In this document: piece by piece, positions 12,953 to 50,109 of the stretch
Numbering within the stretch: the first letter of the stretch is position 1
Layout: the number at the start of each line of letters is the position of its first letter
DNA from: an uncultured Planctomycetaceae bacterium
GTDB lineage: Bacteria; Planctomycetota; Phycisphaerae; SM23-33
Assembly (NCBI GenBank): GCA_964616985.1
Contig: CAZTVF010000005.1
Location: 6,771-70,770 of the forward strand
DNA length: 64,000 bases
Reading direction: 5' to 3'
The notes under the pieces: model-generated
What the model saw: the letters and a program-made list of their open reading frames with translations, nothing else
Told to the model about the DNA's origin: nothing
Database searches by the model: none
Made by a program: the position numbers and the translations under genes

Positions 12953-13483
12953 ATGATGAGTATGACCAAGACCAACACGCGGCTGGGCGTCTTTCCGGGG
13001 ACTTTCGATCCGATCACCAATGGCCACCTCGACGTCATCCGCCGGGGCGCTAAGCTTTTCGACGGCCTTATCGTCGCCGTCGGCGAGAACCCCGAGAAGG
13101 CCGCCATGCTCAAGCAGGAAGAGCGCGCGGAGATCATCCGCGAGGTGGTGGCCGACATCCCTAACGTGCGCGTCGAGGTATTCAGCGGCCTGACCGTCGA
13201 CTTCGCCCGCAAGGTGGGGGCGGCGGCGATGCTCCGCGGCATCCGCAACAGTTCCGACCTTCAATACGAGTTCCAGATCGCGCTGACCAATCGCGTGGTG
13301 GCTGGCGTGGAAACCGTATTCATCATGACCAGCACCGAATACGCGTTCACCTCCTCCTCGCTGATCCGCCAGATCGCCCGCATGGGCGGCGACGTGTCGG
13401 CCATGGTGCCGCCGCAGGTGTTGCCGCACATCCAGGCCCGCTGCCGGGGCGGCGGCAACGACGGGACGCTTCGCGAAACATGA
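12953..13483 (+). CDS. coaD: pantetheine-phosphate adenylyltransferase
   Basis: MMSMTKTNTRLGVFPGTFDPITNGHLDVIRRG matches the (T/H)xGH nucleotidyltransferase motif. The start was set by codon counting within track ORF 12575-13483. Confidence 0.8.
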   Translation: MMSMTKTNTRLGVFPGTFDPITNGHLDVIRRGAKLFDGLIVAVGENPEKAAMLKQEERAEIIREVVADIPNVRVEVFSGLTVDFARKVGAAAMLRGIRNSSDLQYEFQIALTNRVVAGVETVFIMTSTEYAFTSSSLIRQIARMGGDVSAMVPPQVLPHIQARCRGGGNDGTLRET

Positions 13484-15723
13484 GGATCGCCAAGGGGACA
13501 TTCCTTCTGCTGGGCGCGATGGCGCTCGCGGCAGCGGCCTTGGCCGCCGACGCGCCGCCGGCGGCGGCCACCGCGCCTGCCCCGGCCATCGCCGACCTCC
13601 CCATCCGCATCGGCGGGCACGTTCGCGTGCTCGCGCCGCTGCTGACGCACGAGACCTCCGCGCCGCAGGCTCGCCAGGAACTGCTGGCCCTGCAGGAATC
13701 GTTCTTCTCGACGCTCGGGTCGTTCGCCGATGACGAGGACCTCGAACTGCGGCTGCGAACGCTGGCCTCGCTGGAGGATGGCATCCTGGAAGTGCGCGTC
13801 GCGAGGATCCTGGCGATCCTGCCCCTGGAGCAGGCGGATAAGATGCTGCGGTTCCGCAAGGCCCAGCCTCGGCTGTTCGCCGAGATGTTCAGCCAGGACT
13901 GGTCCCGTCGCACGAAGGCGATGAAGCAGCTCGCCAAGGCGACCGACCCGCAGAAACTGGCCGAGCCGCTGGTGATCATGTCGCTCCGCCATCCCGACTC
14001 GCAGCTGGTGGCGCAGGCGGCGCTGGCCGCCGGCCGCCTGGGATATGATTCGCCCGCCATCACCGAGGCATTGATCGAGGTGGCGCTGCAGGACGATAAC
14101 GACAACGGCTACCTGGTCGATCCGGACGGCACGCGGACCTCCTCGTGGATGGCGGCGCTGTCGGCGCTTCGCGATATCAACAGCGCCCAGGCGGCGCCGG
14201 TGCTCGCCTCGCTGCTGATCTCCAACAAGAGCAACTGGGGCAACTACGAGCGCTATGCCTCGGTGGCCGAGGCGCTGGCCAACAGCAACGAGATTCGCGT
14301 CCTGCCCGCGCTCATCGCCAGCCTCGACAACCGCCGCACGGCCAACTACAGCTGGTCGAACGGCGACTCCTCCGGCGGCACGAGCCTGTGCGACTACGCG
14401 TTCTACGCCGTGCTCCGCCTGACGGGACAGGCGGGGCAGGAGTACGCCTTCATTGTCAATTCGAACTATGGCAATACCAACATGGGCTTCAGCGACGAGA
14501 AGAGCCGCCGCGTTGCCTACGACCGTGTGAAGCAGTGGTGGGCTGCCCACAAGGATGAGCCGCCCTACAAGACGATGGAGCCGCTGGAGATCAAGCCGAT
14601 GAGCCGCCCCGGCAACAAGGCCGCGACGGCCAGTTCGGCCCCGGCGACGATGGCCGCGTCGGCCCCAGCCCCGGCGTCCATGCCTGCCCCCGTCCTGCCC
14701 CCCAGCCTGGCCGCGTCGGTTGCGGAGTACCTCAGGCCGCTGGCCCGGCAGTGCGCGGCGCCCAATCTCCACGTTCGTCAGGCCGCCCAGCGGGCGATCG
14801 CCGACCTTGAGGATGTGTACCTGCAGTCGCTGGTCGAGGCCGCGCGGGAAGGCGAACCGGCCCTGCGCGACAAGGTGCTGGACCTGCTGGCCGAGGCGTT
14901 CGCGGAGGGGACGATCCAGTCGACACTTTGCCGCCTGCCGGCGGCGCAGAAGGCGAAGATGTTCGCCTTGCTCCAGGATTCGCCCAAGGCGGCGCGGGAC
15001 ATGTTCTCGTTGAACAGTTCGGCCAAGGCCGAGGCGATGAAGACGCTGTTGGCGCGGCCGGACCCCAACACGCTGGCCGAGCCGCTGCTCCTGCTGACGT
15101 TGAAGGACCCCGCACCGTTCGTCCAACGGTTCGGCATCTCGCTTGCCGCCACCGGGCGCTATCGCAGCGACGAGAGCATAGATGCCCTGCTGTGCATGCT
15201 GCTGGCGATCTCGCAGGATGAGTGGAACCAGGCGGCCTACAACAGTGATCGCCCGCTGCGCAAGCTGCTCGAAGCGCTGACGAAGATCGGCAGCCCCCGT
15301 GCGGCGCCAGTCCTGCTGGGCATGCTCAACGTCAACGAGTACAACCGGGCGGCCCTGCTGATCGAGCCGTTGGTGGCGACCGGGCAGAAAGGCATGATCC
15401 CCGCGCTGATAGGCCGGCTGAACAACACCAGCGTCTACAGCACTCACTCCATGAATAACAAGAGCGTGACGCTGGCCAGCAGCGATACGGCGCTGGTGGT
15501 CCTGCTGCGGCTGACCGGCCAGGACATCAAATCGTACGGTCTGGAATCCATCGACAGCGGCGTCAAACTGTACGGGTTCAAGGACGAAAAGACCCGCAAA
15601 GACGCGATCAAGAAATTCCGCGACTGGTGGGCCGCCAACAAGGACCAGGCTCCCTATAAAGACATCAAGCCCATCGGCGCCCAGACACTCACCGGCGCCG
15701 ACGGTCGGCAGCAGGGGGACTAG
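13480..15723 (+). CDS. secreted HEAT/ARM-repeat protein with internal duplication (hypothetical)
   Basis: It has a signal peptide (MRIAKGTFLLLGAMALAAAALAA). Two homologous modules are present (...PQKLAEPLVIMSLRHPD... and ...PNTLAEPLLLLTLKDPAP..., and ...KDEPPYK... twice). Confidence 0.45.
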   Translation: MRIAKGTFLLLGAMALAAAALAADAPPAAATAPAPAIADLPIRIGGHVRVLAPLLTHETSAPQARQELLALQESFFSTLGSFADDEDLELRLRTLASLEDGILEVRVARILAILPLEQADKMLRFRKAQPRLFAEMFSQDWSRRTKAMKQLAKATDPQKLAEPLVIMSLRHPDSQLVAQAALAAGRLGYDSPAITEALIEVALQDDNDNGYLVDPDGTRTSSWMAALSALRDINSAQAAPVLASLLISNKSNWGNYERYASVAEALANSNEIRVLPALIASLDNRRTANYSWSNGDSSGGTSLCDYAFYAVLRLTGQAGQEYAFIVNSNYGNTNMGFSDEKSRRVAYDRVKQWWAAHKDEPPYKTMEPLEIKPMSRPGNKAATASSAPATMAASAPAPASMPAPVLPPSLAASVAEYLRPLARQCAAPNLHVRQAAQRAIADLEDVYLQSLVEAAREGEPALRDKVLDLLAEAFAEGTIQSTLCRLPAAQKAKMFALLQDSPKAARDMFSLNSSAKAEAMKTLLARPDPNTLAEPLLLLTLKDPAPFVQRFGISLAATGRYRSDESIDALLCMLLAISQDEWNQAAYNSDRPLRKLLEALTKIGSPRAAPVLLGMLNVNEYNRAALLIEPLVATGQKGMIPALIGRLNNTSVYSTHSMNNKSVTLASSDTALVVLLRLTGQDIKSYGLESIDSGVKLYGFKDEKTRKDAIKKFRDWWAANKDQAPYKDIKPIGAQTLTGADGRQQGD

Positions 15724-15744: not shown

Positions 15745-15805
15745 CCCAGCGGGAAGAAGCAGCGAGCCGCAGAACGGCAAAACAAGGAATTTCGAATACT
15801 GAAGT
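15745..15805 (+). repeat. copy of a dispersed ~60-bp 3'-end element (GAAGAAGCAGCGARCMGCAGAAC.GCARAACAAGGAATKTCGAATACTGAAGTGAAAGACAA)
   Basis: The same element occurs twice in tandem inside the 3' end of the transporter ORF at 46900-47090. Here it sits 20 nt after the stop of the HEAT-repeat gene. Confidence 0.55.
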
Positions 15806-15904
15806 GAAAGACAATGGGTCAGGAAAAGGTTCCTGACTGGCTGACCCCTTTTCCTCCTTGAGGGGCAATGCGAACGTCTGCCGCAGTGGAACGCGCTGAT
15901 GTTG

Positions 15905-16120
15905 TGTCATGGGTCCCGTAGGGACCGCTGAAGCTAGCCCAGCACTTTAGTGCTGGGTCAGGGGGCCGAGCGCACTTGAGTCCCGTAGGGACGATTGAAA
16001 CGTTTCAGTCGTCCCTGCGGGACTCAGAATGCGGGGAATACCTGCGTTTCCCCAGCACTGAAGTGCTGGGCTATTCTCAGCCGTCCCTACGGGACGCAGT
16101 AGCGGAAAAGCCATCCCACG
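15905..16120. repeat. cluster of short perfect palindromes in the convergent intergenic spacer
   Basis: GTCCCGTAGGGAC, CGTCCCTGCGGGACT/AGTCCCGTAGGGACG and CGTCCCTACGGGACG occur together with CCCAGCACTTTAGTGCTGGG and CCCAGCACTGAAGTGCTGGG and TGAAACGTTTCA. They are arranged as two inverted super-units. Confidence 0.5.
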
Positions 16121-23454: not shown

Positions 23455-23500
23455 GCGTGTCCGGCCGAGCATGCCGGCGCGGGTACGCTTCGGCATGGCA
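23455..23500. repeat. single copy of the 37-bp hairpin unit (CATGCCGGCGCGGGTACGCTTCGGCATGGCACC)
   Basis: The same unit is repeated x3 at 47253-47370. Confidence 0.5.
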
Positions 23501-23545
23501 CCCCTCGGTATCATCTGGTAGGATGCCCTCATCAGGAGCATCCTT

Positions 23546-45341: not shown

Positions 45342-45414
45342 GCGCCGCTAGCTCAGTTGGTAGAGCAGGTGACTCTTAATCACCGGGTCGTAGGTTCGAC
45401 TCCTACGCGGCGCA
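45342..45414 (+). tRNA. tRNA-Lys (anticodon CTT)
   Basis: The manual fold gives acceptor GCGCCGC/GCGGCGC, a D-arm GCTCAGTTGGTAGAGC, an anticodon stem GGTGA/TCACC with loop CTCTTAA (U33, anticodon CUU, A37), a T-arm GTAGG-TTCGACT-CCTAC, and discriminator A. The CCA is not encoded. Confidence 0.8.
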
Positions 45415-45417
45415 CGT

Positions 45418-45452
45418 AAAGACCGGCCCGAAAGGCCGGTCTTTGTTTTTTG
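45418..45452 (+). terminator. rho-independent terminator after tRNA-Lys
   Basis: AGACCGGCC-CGAAA-GGCCGGTCT is followed by TTGTTTTTTG. Confidence 0.65.
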
Positions 45453-45580: not shown

Positions 45581-47092
45581 ATGATCAAGAATACATTTCT
45601 GCGGAGCTACGCACTGTCGCTGGTGCTGATCGGGGCCATCGTGGTCGGGTCGCTCGTGGGCCTCGTGTTTCCGACCGCCACGACAAACTTCCCCATCCAG
45701 TGGCACGACACGTCCTTCAACACGTGGCTGCTCACCAGCGTCATCAAGCCGTTTGGCGACGTCTTCCTCAACGCATTGTTCACCGTGGTCGTGCCGCTGG
45801 TGTTCTTCTCGATCTCCTCGGCTGTCGCGGGCATGGTGAGCACGAAGCGGCTGTTTCGCATCCTGGGCTGGATGATGGTCGTCTTCATCATCACCGGCGT
45901 GATCGCATCGCTGCTGATGGTGGCCGGGGTGAAGCTGTTCCCGCCGGCCGAGGGCGTGCACCTGACGGTGCAGGCGGGGGCGGCCGTGCAGAAGATGAGC
46001 ACATCCGACCAGATCGTCAGCGCCGTCAGCACGTCGGACTTTGTGAACCTGCTGTCGAAGAGAAACATGCTCGCCCTGATCGTCTTCGCGGTGCTGGTGG
46101 GGCTGGCCGCATCGGCGGCGGGCGAGAAGGGAAGGCCCTTCGCGAACTTCCTCGCCTCCGGCAGCGAGGTGTTCATGAAGGTGATCTCGCTGATCATGTA
46201 CTACGCGCCGCTGGGGCTGGCGGCGTACTTCGCGTACCTGGTGGGGGTGTTCGGGCCGGACCTGCTGACGGACTACGCGCGGGCCATGGCGCTATACTAC
46301 CCGCTGTGCATCGCGTACTTCTTCATCGCCTTCACGCTGTATTCCGGCCTGGCCGGCGGGGGCTTGGGCGTGCGGAGGTTCTGGGGCAACATCGTGCCGG
46401 CATCGCTGACGGCGATGGGCACCGGCAGCAGTTTCGCCACGATCCCGGTGAGCCTTCAGGCGGCCGACCGCATCGGCACGCCCCGCGAGGTGAGCGAGGT
46501 GGTGATCCCCATCGGCGCGACGATCCACATGGACGGCTCGTGCCTGGCGGCGGTGCTGAAGATCGCCTTCCTCTTCGGCATCTACCAGATGCCTTTTCAG
46601 GGCTTCGAGACGATCGCCATCGCGGTGGGCATCGCGATCCTCAGCGGCACGGTGATGAGCGGCATCCCGCAGGGCGGTTTCACGGGCGAGATCCTGATCG
46701 TGGCGATGTACGGCTTCCCGCCCGAGGCGCTGCCGATCATCTCGATGATCGGCACGCTGGTGGATCCGCCGGCCACGATGGTCAACGCCGTCGGCGACAA
46801 CGTCGCCAGCATGCTTGTCGCCCGCCTCATGGGCGGCAAGGGGTGGATGCAGGCCGGCAATGCGCCCCAGGCCGATGCGAACGTGTGCTGCGTCCGGGCC
46901 GCCGCGAATGACGAAGAAGCAGCGAACAGCAGAACCGCAGAACAAGGAATGTCGAATACTGAAGTGAACGGCAACGCGCCTCAGGCCGATGCGAACGTGT
47001 GCTGCGTCCGGGCCGTCGCGAATGGCGAAGAAGCAGCGAACAGCAGAACCGCAGAACAAGGAATGTCGAATGCTGAAGTGAAAGACAAATAG
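45581..47092 (+). CDS. dicarboxylate/amino acid:cation symporter (DAACS; SstT/GltP-like) with a repeat-derived C-terminal tail
   Basis: It has a polytopic profile and DAACS motifs (...SSFATIPVSL..., ...GATIHMDGSCL...). The start is MIKNTF by codon counting. The last ~80 aa are encoded by two tandem copies of a dispersed element. Confidence 0.65.
   Translation: MIKNTFLRSYALSLVLIGAIVVGSLVGLVFPTATTNFPIQWHDTSFNTWLLTSVIKPFGDVFLNALFTVVVPLVFFSISSAVAGMVSTKRLFRILGWMMVVFIITGVIASLLMVAGVKLFPPAEGVHLTVQAGAAVQKMSTSDQIVSAVSTSDFVNLLSKRNMLALIVFAVLVGLAASAAGEKGRPFANFLASGSEVFMKVISLIMYYAPLGLAAYFAYLVGVFGPDLLTDYARAMALYYPLCIAYFFIAFTLYSGLAGGGLGVRRFWGNIVPASLTAMGTGSSFATIPVSLQAADRIGTPREVSEVVIPIGATIHMDGSCLAAVLKIAFLFGIYQMPFQGFETIAIAVGIAILSGTVMSGIPQGGFTGEILIVAMYGFPPEALPIISMIGTLVDPPATMVNAVGDNVASMLVARLMGGKGWMQAGNAPQADANVCCVRAAANDEEAANSRTAEQGMSNTEVNGNAPQADANVCCVRAVANGEEAANSRTAEQGMSNAEVKDK
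46850..47090 (+). repeat. tandem duplication (about 114 bp x2) of a dispersed element, in-frame with the transporter 3' end
   Basis: Units starting GCGCC(C/T)CAGGCCGATGCGAACGTGTGCTGCGTCCGGGCC... are about 95% identical. Each ends with the ~60-bp core also found at 15745-15805. Confidence 0.6.
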
Positions 47093-47252
47093 ATTGAAGA
47101 ACCAAACTTGTCTGGGGGTGCGAAGGCGTCACCGGGTCAATTCTCGTCTGGCGGCAAATGGAACCCGGCGGCCGGGGCGGCATATCCATCGTCCTTTATG
47201 TCCCGTCTGTGCCGCCCGAAACTCGTTTGGGAGTGCGAGCCGCATTCCAAGC

Positions 47253-47370
47253 GAGCATGCCGGCGCGGGTACGCTTCGGTATGGCACCGGCGAGCATGCC
47301 GGCGCGAATACGCTTCGGCATGGCACCGGCGAGCATATCCGGCGCGAGTACGCTTCGGCATGGCACCCAT
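47253..47370. repeat. three tandem copies of a 37-bp hairpin unit (GGCACCGGCGAGCATGCCGGCGCGRRTACGCTTCGGCAT)
   Basis: This is a direct triplication with a few substitutions. Each unit contains the inverted repeat CATGCCG...CGGCATG. A single copy lies at 23455-23500. Confidence 0.6.
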
Positions 47371-47380
47371 CGCCGGGCGA

Positions 47381-48025
47381 TCAGAAGATGTCCGTGGCCC
47401 CCAGCTGCTGCGCGAGCTTTTCGATGGCCTGCCGCAGGAGCTTGACCTCGTCCTCGAGCTTGTCCACCCGTTCGGCCACCGCAGGGTCGGGCGGGGCGGC
47501 CTCGGTGGGCGCAGGGGCACTTGACGATTCCAGCGGGTGAAGTTCGGGGCACAGAAGCTGCGCGTACCGCGTGGCCCGGCCGCCCGCGACGGGCCTGACC
47601 AGCGGCTCGGGGCGGTCCATCATGTGGGCCAGCGTGTTCTGCACCACCTCCAGCGATTCCAGCGGGTGCATCCGCGACGCGCGGCCGCGAAGCTCGCCCA
47701 CCGTCTGCGGACCGCGAAGGAGCATCTCCGTCAGGATCACCAGCTCGGTCACCCCGACGCCCAGCGACTCATTCGCACTGTGCTTGTACTTCATCACGCG
47801 GCTGCCGAGGGTGTCGGCGTAGATGACCAGCTTCTTGTCCCGCAGGCCGTCCAGGGCCCGCACGACACGGTCCTCATCGATCGTGATCATCGGATCGCGA
47901 TTGCTCTTCTGGTTGCAGCCATTGATGATCGCGTTGAGCGACATGGGGTACTGTCCCGGCGTGGTCAGTTCCTTCTCCACCAACACACCCAGCACACGGC
48001 ACTCATCCGGGGTCAACTGAATCAT
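47381..48025 (-). CDS. YceH/DUF480 (UPF0502) family protein
   Basis: MIQLTPDECRVLGVLVEKELTTPGQYPMSLNAIINGCNQKSNRDPMI is the characteristic N-terminus. The start was set at the second Met of the track ORF. Confidence 0.65.
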   Translation of the reverse strand: MIQLTPDECRVLGVLVEKELTTPGQYPMSLNAIINGCNQKSNRDPMITIDEDRVVRALDGLRDKKLVIYADTLGSRVMKYKHSANESLGVGVTELVILTEMLLRGPQTVGELRGRASRMHPLESLEVVQNTLAHMMDRPEPLVRPVAGGRATRYAQLLCPELHPLESSSAPAPTEAAPPDPAVAERVDKLEDEVKLLRQAIEKLAQQLGATDIF

Positions 48026-48090
48026 TCCTGCCTCCGGTTGGTTTATACGATCTGTTGCGGCGAATGACACACGAATCCGCAAGGCGGCCG

Positions 48091-50109
48091 CTACTTCGCC
48101 GGCGCCCATCCCGGCAGCGAGACATTTCCACGTCGAATGGGGGCGTAGACCCGCGAGGCCGCGGTTTTCATCGGCCCCGGCGTCAGGATGTTGACCACCC
48201 GGCCGGATTGGAGCACGATCTCGTCGCGGGGGTCGCCGGTGAGGTCCTGCACCATCGCCATCGCGCCGTTGGCACGGTTAGGGCAGGGCACGTCGAACTT
48301 CACCAGCTTGCGTCCGGTTGCATCGTAGAGTCCCAGGGCATCCTGCGAGCCCATCAGCAGGATATGCTCCCACCCGTCGCCGGTCCAGTTGACGGGGCAA
48401 TGCATCGCGCCGAGGTAGTCGCACTGCAGCGTGCCCAGGCGTTTGCCGGTGGCCGAGAAGACGGCCATGTAGCCGTACGTGCCCCAGCGGCTGTTGGTGA
48501 GCACCTGCAGGCCGTCGTGATCCTCGAGCAGCCGGCCCACCTGGCACCACTGCACGTGCCCCAGGCGGTGGATGGCGAGCGTGCGGCCGGTGCGGGCGTC
48601 GACGACGGCGTTGCCGTTGCAGCCGAGCTGCAGGTGCGCGACGGGGCCGATCTCGCTGTCGGCGTCGAAGAACCCCATGGCGACGGAATCCACGTGGTCG
48701 GGCCGGTGATAGTGCCCGGGCTGGTAGAGAAGGTCCGCATCCTCCCACTGCCAGATCACCTTGCCGTCGTGCGACAGCAGCGTGGGCCCGGCGAGGACCT
48801 CCTCGCGGCCGTCGCCGTTGACGTCGCAGAAGGCGAAGCTTCGCGAGTGCCCGAACGGCGGCAGGATCCGCTTCTCCCACAGGATGTCCAGTTTGCGCGA
48901 GACGGCCCAGCAGCGAAAGCCCGCGCCGCCGCTGGTGGGCAGTTCCTCGCGGAGGAAGAACTCGCCGGCCAGGGGCGCCCCCGAGAGGTTGGCGACGCAC
49001 TCGCCCACCGGCACGACGATGGCCTTGGGGTCATCCGACGCGGGCGTCTTGAGGCGGCGGACGATGCGGCCGGTGGGGCCATCGACCAGCACGTGCTCGT
49101 CGCCCAGGCGGCCGAAGATGTCGTTGAGGCCGTCGGCGCGCGGCGCGGCGATACAGGAGGTCAATTCGCCGGCGAGCCGCCAGATCTCGCGGCCGCGAAG
49201 GTCCATGCACAGGGTCGCGCCCGCGCCGCCGGCCTCGCTGCCGGAGCCGATCAACTGGGCCTCGTCGCGCCGGGCCAGGCGGGCGGCGAAGGTGACGGCG
49301 GCGATGGGCTCGGCCAGGGTGAAAGTCGAATGCACGACGGGCTCGGGCATGCGCTGCGCCATGGCCGCGCGGCGGTCTTCCTCCCGGGCCTGCTGGGCAG
49401 CGAAACGTCGCACCGCGGGGCCGTCGGCGCGGATCACGAGCTGGTCGACGTACGCCGCGGCGTTGGTCCGCACGCCCGCCAGGCCGCGTTCGAAGCGGTC
49501 GTCGGTGACGGCAAAGACGCGCCGGCCGTCGAGGCTGGCCTCGAGGCGGTCGCCTCGGCAGGAGAGTTCGAGGCAGTACCAGGCGCCCATTTCGGGCTTG
49601 ATGCAGGTGGAGGCGAGTTCGAGCCACTCGTCGTCGCTGCGGCGGATGAGGGCGAGCTTGCCGTCGGCCTGGATGCACAGGAAGTAGTACTGGCGGACGT
49701 TGAGCATGCGGGCGACGATGCCGACGGCGGCGATGCGGTTGTCGACGCGGTCCTCCAGCGGTCGCGTGCGGTCCGACAGCAGCGCGACCCGCGCGCGGAC
49801 GATGCAGTCGGGCGGCACGGGTTGACGAGTCACCAGCGAGCGGTCGAATCGCGTGCCGTCCCAGCCCGCGCGGGCGTCAGCCTCCAGGTCGAAGTGCAGC
49901 ACGGGGCGGTTGCTGTGCCCGTGCAGCACGGGGCCCTGCGGAAGGTGCGCCACCTTCATGAGGCTGTAGTGCTTCCAGTATGCCGGCGGCACGGTGGGGG
50001 CAACCCATTCCGTGAAGCAGGCGTCAACGTCGGCGCTGGGCTCCATCGGGTTCAGCACCCAGCCCTGGGGGCAGTTGTCCAGGCGAAGCTCGAGGTGACA
50101 CTGATTCAT
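48091..50109 (-). CDS. LamG-like (concanavalin-type) domain plus FG-GAP/VCBS repeat protein
   Basis: FG-GAP-like repeats are present (FCDVNGDGREEV, FFDADSEIG, LTGDPRDEIVL). The N-terminal jelly-roll-like segment reads YYFLCIQADGKLALIRR...LSCRGDRLEASLDGRRVF. The start is uncertain (50109 or 50130). Confidence 0.45.
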   Translation of the reverse strand: MNQCHLELRLDNCPQGWVLNPMEPSADVDACFTEWVAPTVPPAYWKHYSLMKVAHLPQGPVLHGHSNRPVLHFDLEADARAGWDGTRFDRSLVTRQPVPPDCIVRARVALLSDRTRPLEDRVDNRIAAVGIVARMLNVRQYYFLCIQADGKLALIRRSDDEWLELASTCIKPEMGAWYCLELSCRGDRLEASLDGRRVFAVTDDRFERGLAGVRTNAAAYVDQLVIRADGPAVRRFAAQQAREEDRRAAMAQRMPEPVVHSTFTLAEPIAAVTFAARLARRDEAQLIGSGSEAGGAGATLCMDLRGREIWRLAGELTSCIAAPRADGLNDIFGRLGDEHVLVDGPTGRIVRRLKTPASDDPKAIVVPVGECVANLSGAPLAGEFFLREELPTSGGAGFRCWAVSRKLDILWEKRILPPFGHSRSFAFCDVNGDGREEVLAGPTLLSHDGKVIWQWEDADLLYQPGHYHRPDHVDSVAMGFFDADSEIGPVAHLQLGCNGNAVVDARTGRTLAIHRLGHVQWCQVGRLLEDHDGLQVLTNSRWGTYGYMAVFSATGKRLGTLQCDYLGAMHCPVNWTGDGWEHILLMGSQDALGLYDATGRKLVKFDVPCPNRANGAMAMVQDLTGDPRDEIVLQSGRVVNILTPGPMKTAASRVYAPIRRGNVSLPGWAPAK

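Follow-up and report, generated by a model that had tools for sequence, protein, structure and literature searches.

Repetitive extragenic palindromic sequences and bacterial interspersed mosaic elements (REP/BIME), enterobacterial repetitive intergenic consensus sequences (ERIC), Correia elements and miniature inverted-repeat transposable elements (MITEs) are hairpin repeats that lie between genes. Rickettsia palindromic elements (RPEs), which Ogata et al. reportedly described in Science in 2000, are said to be translated within genes. The intervening sequences (IVSs) of 23S rRNA have a stem of terminal inverted repeats, heptameric repeats and an S23p/PF05635 open reading frame (ORF) in the loop, and in Coxiella the IVS stem is cut by RNase III (PMC4990558). 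Here we describe a window of 64 kb (the whole stretch of DNA that was analysed; GC 0.66) from contig CAZTVF010000005.1 of an uncultured Planctomycetaceae bacterium. In this window, a transporter gene of the sodium:dicarboxylate symporter family is prolonged at its 3' end by two tandem units, each ending in a purine-rich core that also occurs in non-coding DNA elsewhere in the window. The C-terminal tail encoded by these units is a lineage-specific add-on, and its core resembles one arm of a family of hairpin repeats in metagenomes.

Results

A C-terminal tail absent from transporter homologues

The transporter gene (45581..47092, plus strand; positions are those of the window) was delimited from the ORF list, Pfam, homologues and an AlphaFold model. 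It is the only long plus-strand ORF at this place, with ATG 45581 as the likely start and TAG 47090-47092 as the stop, and it encodes 503 aa. Pfam SDF (PF00375) matched the protein at E = 1.1e-89 over aa 13-415, covering profile positions 2-386 of 387, and this full-length domain match places it in the SDF/DAACS family. Members of this family have about 400-455 aa and end soon after the last helix, a length that the protein exceeds; the overlong C-terminus is the anomaly under study and no argument against membership. The homologue search returned 5838 homologues at E <= 1e-10, and all comparisons below use the best 119 non-identical ones. These were 400-455 aa long, with a query coverage of 73-90% and an identity of at most 70-73%. 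With the Pfam match ending at aa 415, a preliminary description of this DNA, made from its letters and ORF list, was right that typical family length is reached at about aa 420.

The tail spans 46850..47092 on the plus strand (80 codons plus TAG), and its peptides include TAEQGMSNTEVNGNAPQADANVCCVR. C-terminal length was measured in 106 of the listed homologues, counted from the motif GG(R/K)xW. After this motif, the homologues had a median of 6 residues and never more than 27, versus 81 in this transporter. A comparison with orthologous transporters had been suggested as a check on the tail, and a comparable tail was absent from all 119 listed homologues. An exhaustive phmmer search with the tail against 1.84 billion representative proteins returned no relative at E <= 0.001. 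Downstream of the closest homologues (L122-L124), at loci that are not syntenic, no tail-like DNA was found.

The AlphaFold model, built with 43 sequences, was confident to about aa 425, and the predicted local distance difference test (pLDDT) score of the body was mostly 80-97. In the tail, pLDDT was 31-59 and mostly below 50, and the only helix, at aa 435-454, was of low confidence. The mean hydropathy of the tail was -0.71, versus +0.94 in the body.

A recent frameshift was considered as a cause of the long C-terminus. The other two frames contain no stop near the usual C-terminus, and a frameshift therefore has no support. The preliminary description had also raised a programmed C-terminal extension, and nothing points to one.

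Two in-frame tandem units form the tail

Tandem Repeats Finder reported a period of 114 bp with 2.0 copies at 46855-47082 (score 421). Together with pairwise alignment, this defined tandem unit 1 at 46855..46968 and tandem unit 2 at 46969..47082, both on the plus strand, within the transporter ORF and identical at 109 of 114 positions. Two tandem units of about 114 bp and about 95% identity had been described earlier, and they were recovered here together with their translation, including the A/V, D/G and T/A differences, in the ORF frame. Each unit consists of a 58-nt GC-rich part (GC 0.72) followed by a 56-nt purine-rich core (GC 0.46, purines 0.73); after unit 2, the core runs on for 6 further bases (AGACAA) and then meets the stop. 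The core of about 60 bp that was said to end each unit measures 56 nt in unit 1 and 62 nt in the last copy of the core, called copy C below.

Because 114 bp correspond to 38 codons, the tandem duplication is in frame. As no stop interrupts the unit in the ORF frame, the ORF must have extended through a single core copy even when the duplication had not yet occurred. Of the three frames across the core, only one is open, and stops are present in each of the other two.

We then compared the copies as coding sequence, and the substitution pattern was not that of a constrained protein segment. The 5 differences between units 1 and 2 comprised 2 synonymous and 3 non-synonymous changes (A/V, D/G and T/A). 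When the non-coding core copy elsewhere in the window (copy A) was aligned with copy C in the transporter frame, 5 of the 6 differences were non-synonymous and 1 was synonymous. GC at third codon positions (GC3) was 0.94 in the gene body versus 0.38-0.42 in the core. In the GC-rich half of the unit (its first 19 codons), GC at codon positions 1/2/3 was 0.72/0.56/0.83, which is mildly coding-like, and it begins with residues (QAGNAPQAD) similar to the short native C-termini of some homologues, for example WMDQAPDPAA in P0004.

These findings indicate that the tail is a lineage-specific add-on without coding-type constraint, and it looks like an accident and not a domain. A genuine cytoplasmic C-terminal domain with a regulatory or interaction function, evolved and duplicated in this lineage, would account for an ORF that is intact over 80 codons, a duplication that kept the frame, the coding-like GC3 in the first half of each unit and the low-confidence helix. 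Such a domain is nevertheless highly improbable, given the empty search of the representative proteins, the lack of a comparable tail in any listed homologue, the mostly non-synonymous differences between copies and the low pLDDT, and given that half of each unit is a repeat element also present in non-coding DNA.

Three copies of the core in the window

The window was scanned with a 33-nt core pattern, allowing up to 3 mismatches, and 100 shuffles served as the control. The results showed exactly three sites, with 0 expected, and blastn and a hidden Markov model built from related arms found no further copies on either strand of the window. All three are on the plus strand and correspond to a solo arm of the repeat family described below. 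Copy A (15753..15814) is non-coding and begins 29 nt after the stop of a HEAT-repeat gene (13480..15723, plus strand; 747 aa; TAG 15721-15723; Pfam HEAT_2, E = 4.4e-9), in a convergent intergenic region. Copy B (46913..46968) shows the GAA-rich strand and is cut at the duplication junction. Copy C (47027..47088) is a full 62-nt arm, read in frame as EEAANSRTAEQGMSNAEVKDK and followed by the stop at 47090. Copies A and C were identical at 56 of 62 positions and copies B and C at 55 of 56, and blastn gave 91% identity between B and A. The cores of copies B and C have a GC of 0.46-0.47, versus 0.66 for the window, and a purine content of 0.73. A third, non-coding core after the HEAT-repeat gene, as described earlier, is thus real; its position is corrected from 15745-15805 to 15753-15814 and its distance from the stop from 20 to 29 nt.

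Copy A lies in the spacer between the HEAT-repeat gene and a cytidylyltransferase-like gene, with a small hairpin and two Acido-Lenti-1 motifs beside it. The small hairpin, an 8-bp stem-loop directly after the copy (15818..15837), is followed by T-rich sequence on the minus strand, where it received a terminator-like call, and has a CCCCTTTTCC run 8 nt downstream on the plus strand. Its stem was present in both folds, and it is a possible bidirectional terminator. The DNA after copy A (ATGCGAACGTnTGCnGC) was also considered as a homologue of the GC-rich half of the tandem unit. Its local alignment score of 24 was reached by 2.8% of random window segments, indicating that the likeness is due to chance. 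Copies B and C lie in the spacer between the transporter and a DUF480 gene, beside three 39-bp hairpin units.

A metagenome assembly artefact could mean that the duplication or the missing stop is false and that the real tail is normal or has a single unit. The contig is of metagenome type, P0001, the protein identical to the transporter, is a singleton from one contig of 79 kb, and other assemblies of the same organism break at repeats, with L128 ending 40 nt past the DUF480 stop and L129 in Acido-Lenti-1. We nevertheless consider an artefact very unlikely. The two units differ at 5 well-spread positions and can therefore be told apart, and assemblers as a rule collapse tandem repeats instead of generating them. 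Moreover, the copy A locus is reproduced base for base in the independent Logan assembly L129 (SRR12261225), and an ORF with a single unit would extend across the core all the same. Short Logan contigs (L125-L130; SRR12261225, SRR21424289 and SRR21799890) also encode proteins identical to proteins of the window, indicating that the same organism occurs in other samples. Among these contigs, L129 ends inside the Acido-Lenti-1 motif and L128 stops about 15 nt short of the 39-bp hairpin units.

Folding and RNA family searches

The three window copies were folded and compared with shuffled sequence. Their z-scores were -0.2, +2.2 and +0.6 and, in a second run, -1.5, +1.3 and -0.5, showing that the window cores fold no better than shuffled sequence. 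No partner arm for the core was found on either strand of the window. Rfam 15 matched only tRNA and Acido-Lenti-1 in the window, and the core gave nothing at the gathering threshold and nothing credible at E <= 10. No intrinsic terminator was called inside the core; the other calls were the hairpin by copy A and weak sites near the shuffle expectation. Single arms that lack a partner, fold like shuffled sequence and match no Rfam family do not support a role as a terminator or structured RNA, and the earlier suggestion that the core is a terminator is not upheld.

A family of heptad-arm hairpins in metagenomes

Relatives of the core were sought with a 23-base pattern in 185,579 species genomes, the window's own genome not being among these, and with a slightly looser 21-base pattern in JGI metagenomes. 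The species genomes contained one site, in a Bacteroidia metagenome-assembled genome (L001, JBKQUY010000016), and the metagenomes gave at least 120 contigs (L002-L121) with a contig GC of 35-62%. Plasmid, phage and viral-contig collections gave no core match. At L001, positions 2040-2170 form an imperfect hairpin of the family; it is intergenic, with a 644-aa ORF that looks thrS-like by eye on one side and the neighbouring ORF on the other. The metagenome hairpin set was chosen with a pattern derived from the window core, which partly imposes the conservation of the left arm, and the counts for the family given below are those among the matches listed (124 hits or elements).

The family consensus is (GAACCGCAGAA)TATCGAATATCGAACAAGGAATtTCGAATgATGAAGT - loop - CTTCGaCATTCATTATTCCTTGTTCGATATTCTGCGGTTC, an imperfect inverted repeat in which the motif taken from the core for the search, 24 nt long, is the left arm. 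A partner arm was found within 3 kb for 94 of the 124 hits, with loops mostly of 2-90 nt, and the 71 short-loop members had a median minimum free energy of -33 kcal/mol and a median z-score of -5. Solo arms were also seen among the metagenome matches. The arms are heptad arrays, (GAAnnnn)n / (nnnnTTC)n; they are nearly identical across contigs of GC 35-62% and lie immediately 3' of genes. When translated, the arms give short strings of the EQGxSNxEV, EPQNKE and FCGSAV type, and similar strings are probably common in small hypothetical proteins from metagenomes. An alignment of 58 metagenome hairpins (A2) shows GAAN:NTTC tetramers that pair with a period of 7 nt, separated by 3-nt spacers in which mismatches are frequent. 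Judged from this alignment, the periodicity of 4 bp plus internal loop looks more like a putative protein-binding array than a simple duplex.

Most elements (109 of 124) were not spanned by an ORF of at least 100 aa. The flanking gene pairs were co-directional in 48 cases, convergent in 19 and divergent in 4, with a median distance of about 70 nt to the stop. The family of the core is thus mostly intergenic at gene 3' ends, in agreement with the preliminary description of a 3'-UTR-type element. Loops of 361-513 nt encode, in either orientation, proteins of 117-130 aa of the PF05635 (23S rRNA intervening-sequence protein)/TIGR02436 (four-helix-bundle) type. Such a gene was present in the loop of at least 7 metagenome members (L014, L023, L031, L069, L085, L099 and L100); the loop had an identical length of 364 nt in 4 PF05635-carrying loci, with no rRNA gene nearby, and no rRNA was found in the 21 family loci scanned.

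One subfamily, represented by an alignment of 23 metagenome loci (A4; for example L054:4409-4802), consists of composites about 200 nt long; their borders are sharp and their flanks unrelated, which shows dispersal. The left end of these composites, (T)AATGCAGGCC, often directly adjoins the stop codon of the preceding gene or provides it, and the right end is CTAAGAnnCTAA. In the A4 members L006, L022 and L072, the right arm contains a nested insertion about 100 nt long. No target-site duplication, empty site, transposase or partner REP-associated tyrosine transposase (RAYT) was identified for the family. A search of 28 family loci against Rfam gave no match to the hairpins, even at E <= 0.1 on full members, and a search of the literature with sequence strings and the names PF05635/TIGR02436/S23p turned up no account of these hairpins. 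The family is widespread, has no Rfam model and does not appear in the literature searched, and it is a more novel lead than the tail itself.

The window cores as solo arms of the family

The arm motif GAACAAGGAATnTCGAATnnTGAAG was present in all three window copies, a test that is circular as the search pattern was derived from these copies. An outer motif beside the arm, TTCTGCGGTTC, is independent of the search pattern and also links the window copies to the family. Among the matches listed, this outer motif, written as TTCTGCGGTT, follows 41 of 92 right arms. Its exact complement, GAACCGCAGAA, adjoins the arm in copies B and C, copy A has a diverged version (GAACGGCAAAA), and only 4 of 123 left arms are preceded by GAACCGCAGAA. 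With TTCTGCGGTT after right arms and GAACCGCAGAA rare before left arms, the window copies are identified as right arms on the minus strand. They lack one heptad (GATATTC) relative to the right arms of the family.

The window copies also lack the inverted partner arm, which in the family forms a hairpin of about 30 bp. Given the missing partner and z-scores of -1.5 to +2.2 versus the family median of -5, they are solo arms and incomplete members. Their positions are those of intergenic 3'-end elements, with copy A after the HEAT-repeat stop and copies B and C beyond the conserved end of the transporter, in convergent spacers. No PF05635-like sequence was found in the window (best tblastn E = 0.65). 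The core may be a relic of widespread extra-ribosomal IVS-like hairpin elements that are absent from Rfam 15 and from the literature searched, an identification that we offer tentatively, at somewhat below an even chance.

A different explanation is that the core is kept for an RNA or DNA function, as a single-stranded (GAAnnnn)n array with a protein or small RNA as its binding partner or, with the neighbouring small hairpin, as part of a bidirectional terminator, translation being incidental. The three copies are 90-98% identical in DNA while the encoded peptide varies freely, 27 nt are nearly invariant across metagenome contigs of GC 35-62%, and the GAAN:NTTC tetramers recur every 7 nt in the family alignment while the spacers vary. 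Each of the three copies is in sense orientation shortly past a gene end, copy A being followed by the 8-bp terminator-like hairpin and copy C by a weaker AGACAA...TTGTCT stem. However, the window copies fold no better than shuffled sequence and match nothing in Rfam even at permissive thresholds, the left-arm conservation in the metagenome set is partly a product of the search pattern, the conserved unit of the family is the paired hairpin that is missing here, and this genome contributes only two loci. We therefore regard a conserved RNA or DNA function as unlikely, and read the window cores as decayed solo arms.

Neighbouring genes and repeats

The Acido-Lenti-1 (RF01687) motifs near copy A are inverted relative to each other, one on the minus strand at 15912-15957 (35.5 bits, slightly below the cut-off of 37 bits) and the other on the plus strand at 16051-16096 (54.9 bits). 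A near-perfect 50-nt hairpin (15976-16027) lies between them, and 15912-16096 as a whole is a composite palindrome, about 185 nt long and situated about 100 nt 3' of copy A.

Downstream of the transporter, the convergent DUF480 gene (47381..48109, minus strand; Pfam DUF480, E = 2.2e-52) bounds the repeat-rich spacer that holds the tail. The three tandem 39-bp hairpin units in the transporter-DUF480 spacer (GCGAGCATGCCGGCGCGAGTACGCTTCGGCATGGCACCG; 47251..47367), detected by Tandem Repeats Finder, belong to a different repeat family. A single 97%-identical copy of this unit is found at 23466-23502, and it is a second dispersed, REP-like repeat of the genome.

Directly 5' of the transporter, the region 45342-45440 contains a tRNA gene (70 bits), which is followed by a GC-rich hairpin and a T run (aaagaccggcccgaaaggccggtctttgtttttt). 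This order indicates that the transporter probably has its own promoter within the 140 nt before its ATG.

Discussion

The tail probably arose in three steps, namely a missed stop, read-through of a solo arm and a 114-bp duplication. The transporter would have lost, or never reached, its normal stop, and its frame would have continued into the repeat-rich spacer shared with the DUF480 gene. There it would have run through a decayed 62-nt solo arm, (GAAnnnn)n, in the only open frame; as the arm is open in one frame and the ORF is in that frame, the ORF runs on to the TAG at 47090. An in-frame tandem duplication of 114 bp of the gene end, comprising about 19 GC-rich codons and the arm, would then have doubled the tail. 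The resulting protein would be a normal carrier that has a hydrophilic tail of 80 residues after the last transmembrane helix, presumably translated and harmless, and the tail is most likely disordered and selectively neutral. Insertion of an arm into the gene end and loss of a stop before a resident element are equally possible routes, no syntenic relative having been found. The preliminary description had proposed that a repeat element was inserted and duplicated so that translation reads through it. An add-on that arose by tandem duplication and includes a dispersed element agrees with this proposal; the duplicated piece is the 114-bp gene end and not the element as such.

Several points weigh against this account. 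The coding-like GC of the GC-rich half and its likeness to native tails suggest that part of the tail, namely this half, may be the native C-terminus, although the numbers are small. The substitution counts between copies are very small as well. The best homologues are 70% identical and not syntenic, and the ancestral gene end is accordingly inferred and not observed. The link between the core and the hairpin family consists of a 27-nt near-identical stretch and an 11-nt outer motif with a 7-nt gap, and the metagenome set was selected with a pattern derived from the window. No second assembly of the tail was found: look-ups via P0001, the DUF480 gene and EPSP synthase gave nothing or contigs that stop before the tail. 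A word-based protein search with the tail also returned nothing; this search was weak, as it missed the transporter itself, and was superseded by phmmer.

The tail matters little for the gene itself and is ordinary genome wear. It illustrates neatly that a small duplication, together with repeat DNA, can equip a conserved membrane protein with a new and probably disordered tail, and it cautions annotators against regarding the final 80 residues as a domain. The analysis also yielded a more useful by-product, a large hairpin family of environmental bacteria that is highly conserved in sequence and has IVS architecture outside rRNA genes. If the proposed relationship is true, IVS-like elements would propagate as selfish DNA or serve as sites for RNase III or protein binding, and they would occasionally donate C-terminal peptide sequence to host proteins.

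Among the known systems, the metagenome family resembles the IVSs in its long terminal inverted repeats, in loops that are short or hold a 361-513-nt PF05635/TIGR02436 insert and in its stem heptads. In contrast to IVSs, its members are next to protein genes and outside rRNA genes (0 of 21 loci scanned), and so outside the location that defines an IVS. The window differs further, as rRNA, a PF05635 gene and a paired stem are all lacking from it. With REP/BIME, ERIC, Correia and MITE repeats, the family shares dispersed imperfect palindromes of about 80-200 nt with sharp borders, a position after gene ends or between convergent genes, a mosaic composition and nested insertions. Its arms differ from these repeats in being built of heptads, in which only the GAAN:NTTC tetramers pair regularly, and the window copies have no inverted repeats.

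The tail also resembles a stop-loss extension, in that the ORF continues to the next in-frame stop in a former 3' flank, with an in-frame duplication afterwards. It differs in that the lost stop cannot be located and insertion of an arm would serve equally well. RPEs are reportedly whole palindromic units inside genes with dozens of copies per genome, whereas the window has one arm, at the extreme 3' end of a gene, and two loci. The likeness to RPEs lies in the outcome, in which a normally non-coding short dispersed repeat is read in frame and adds a hydrophilic segment that relatives of the protein lack.

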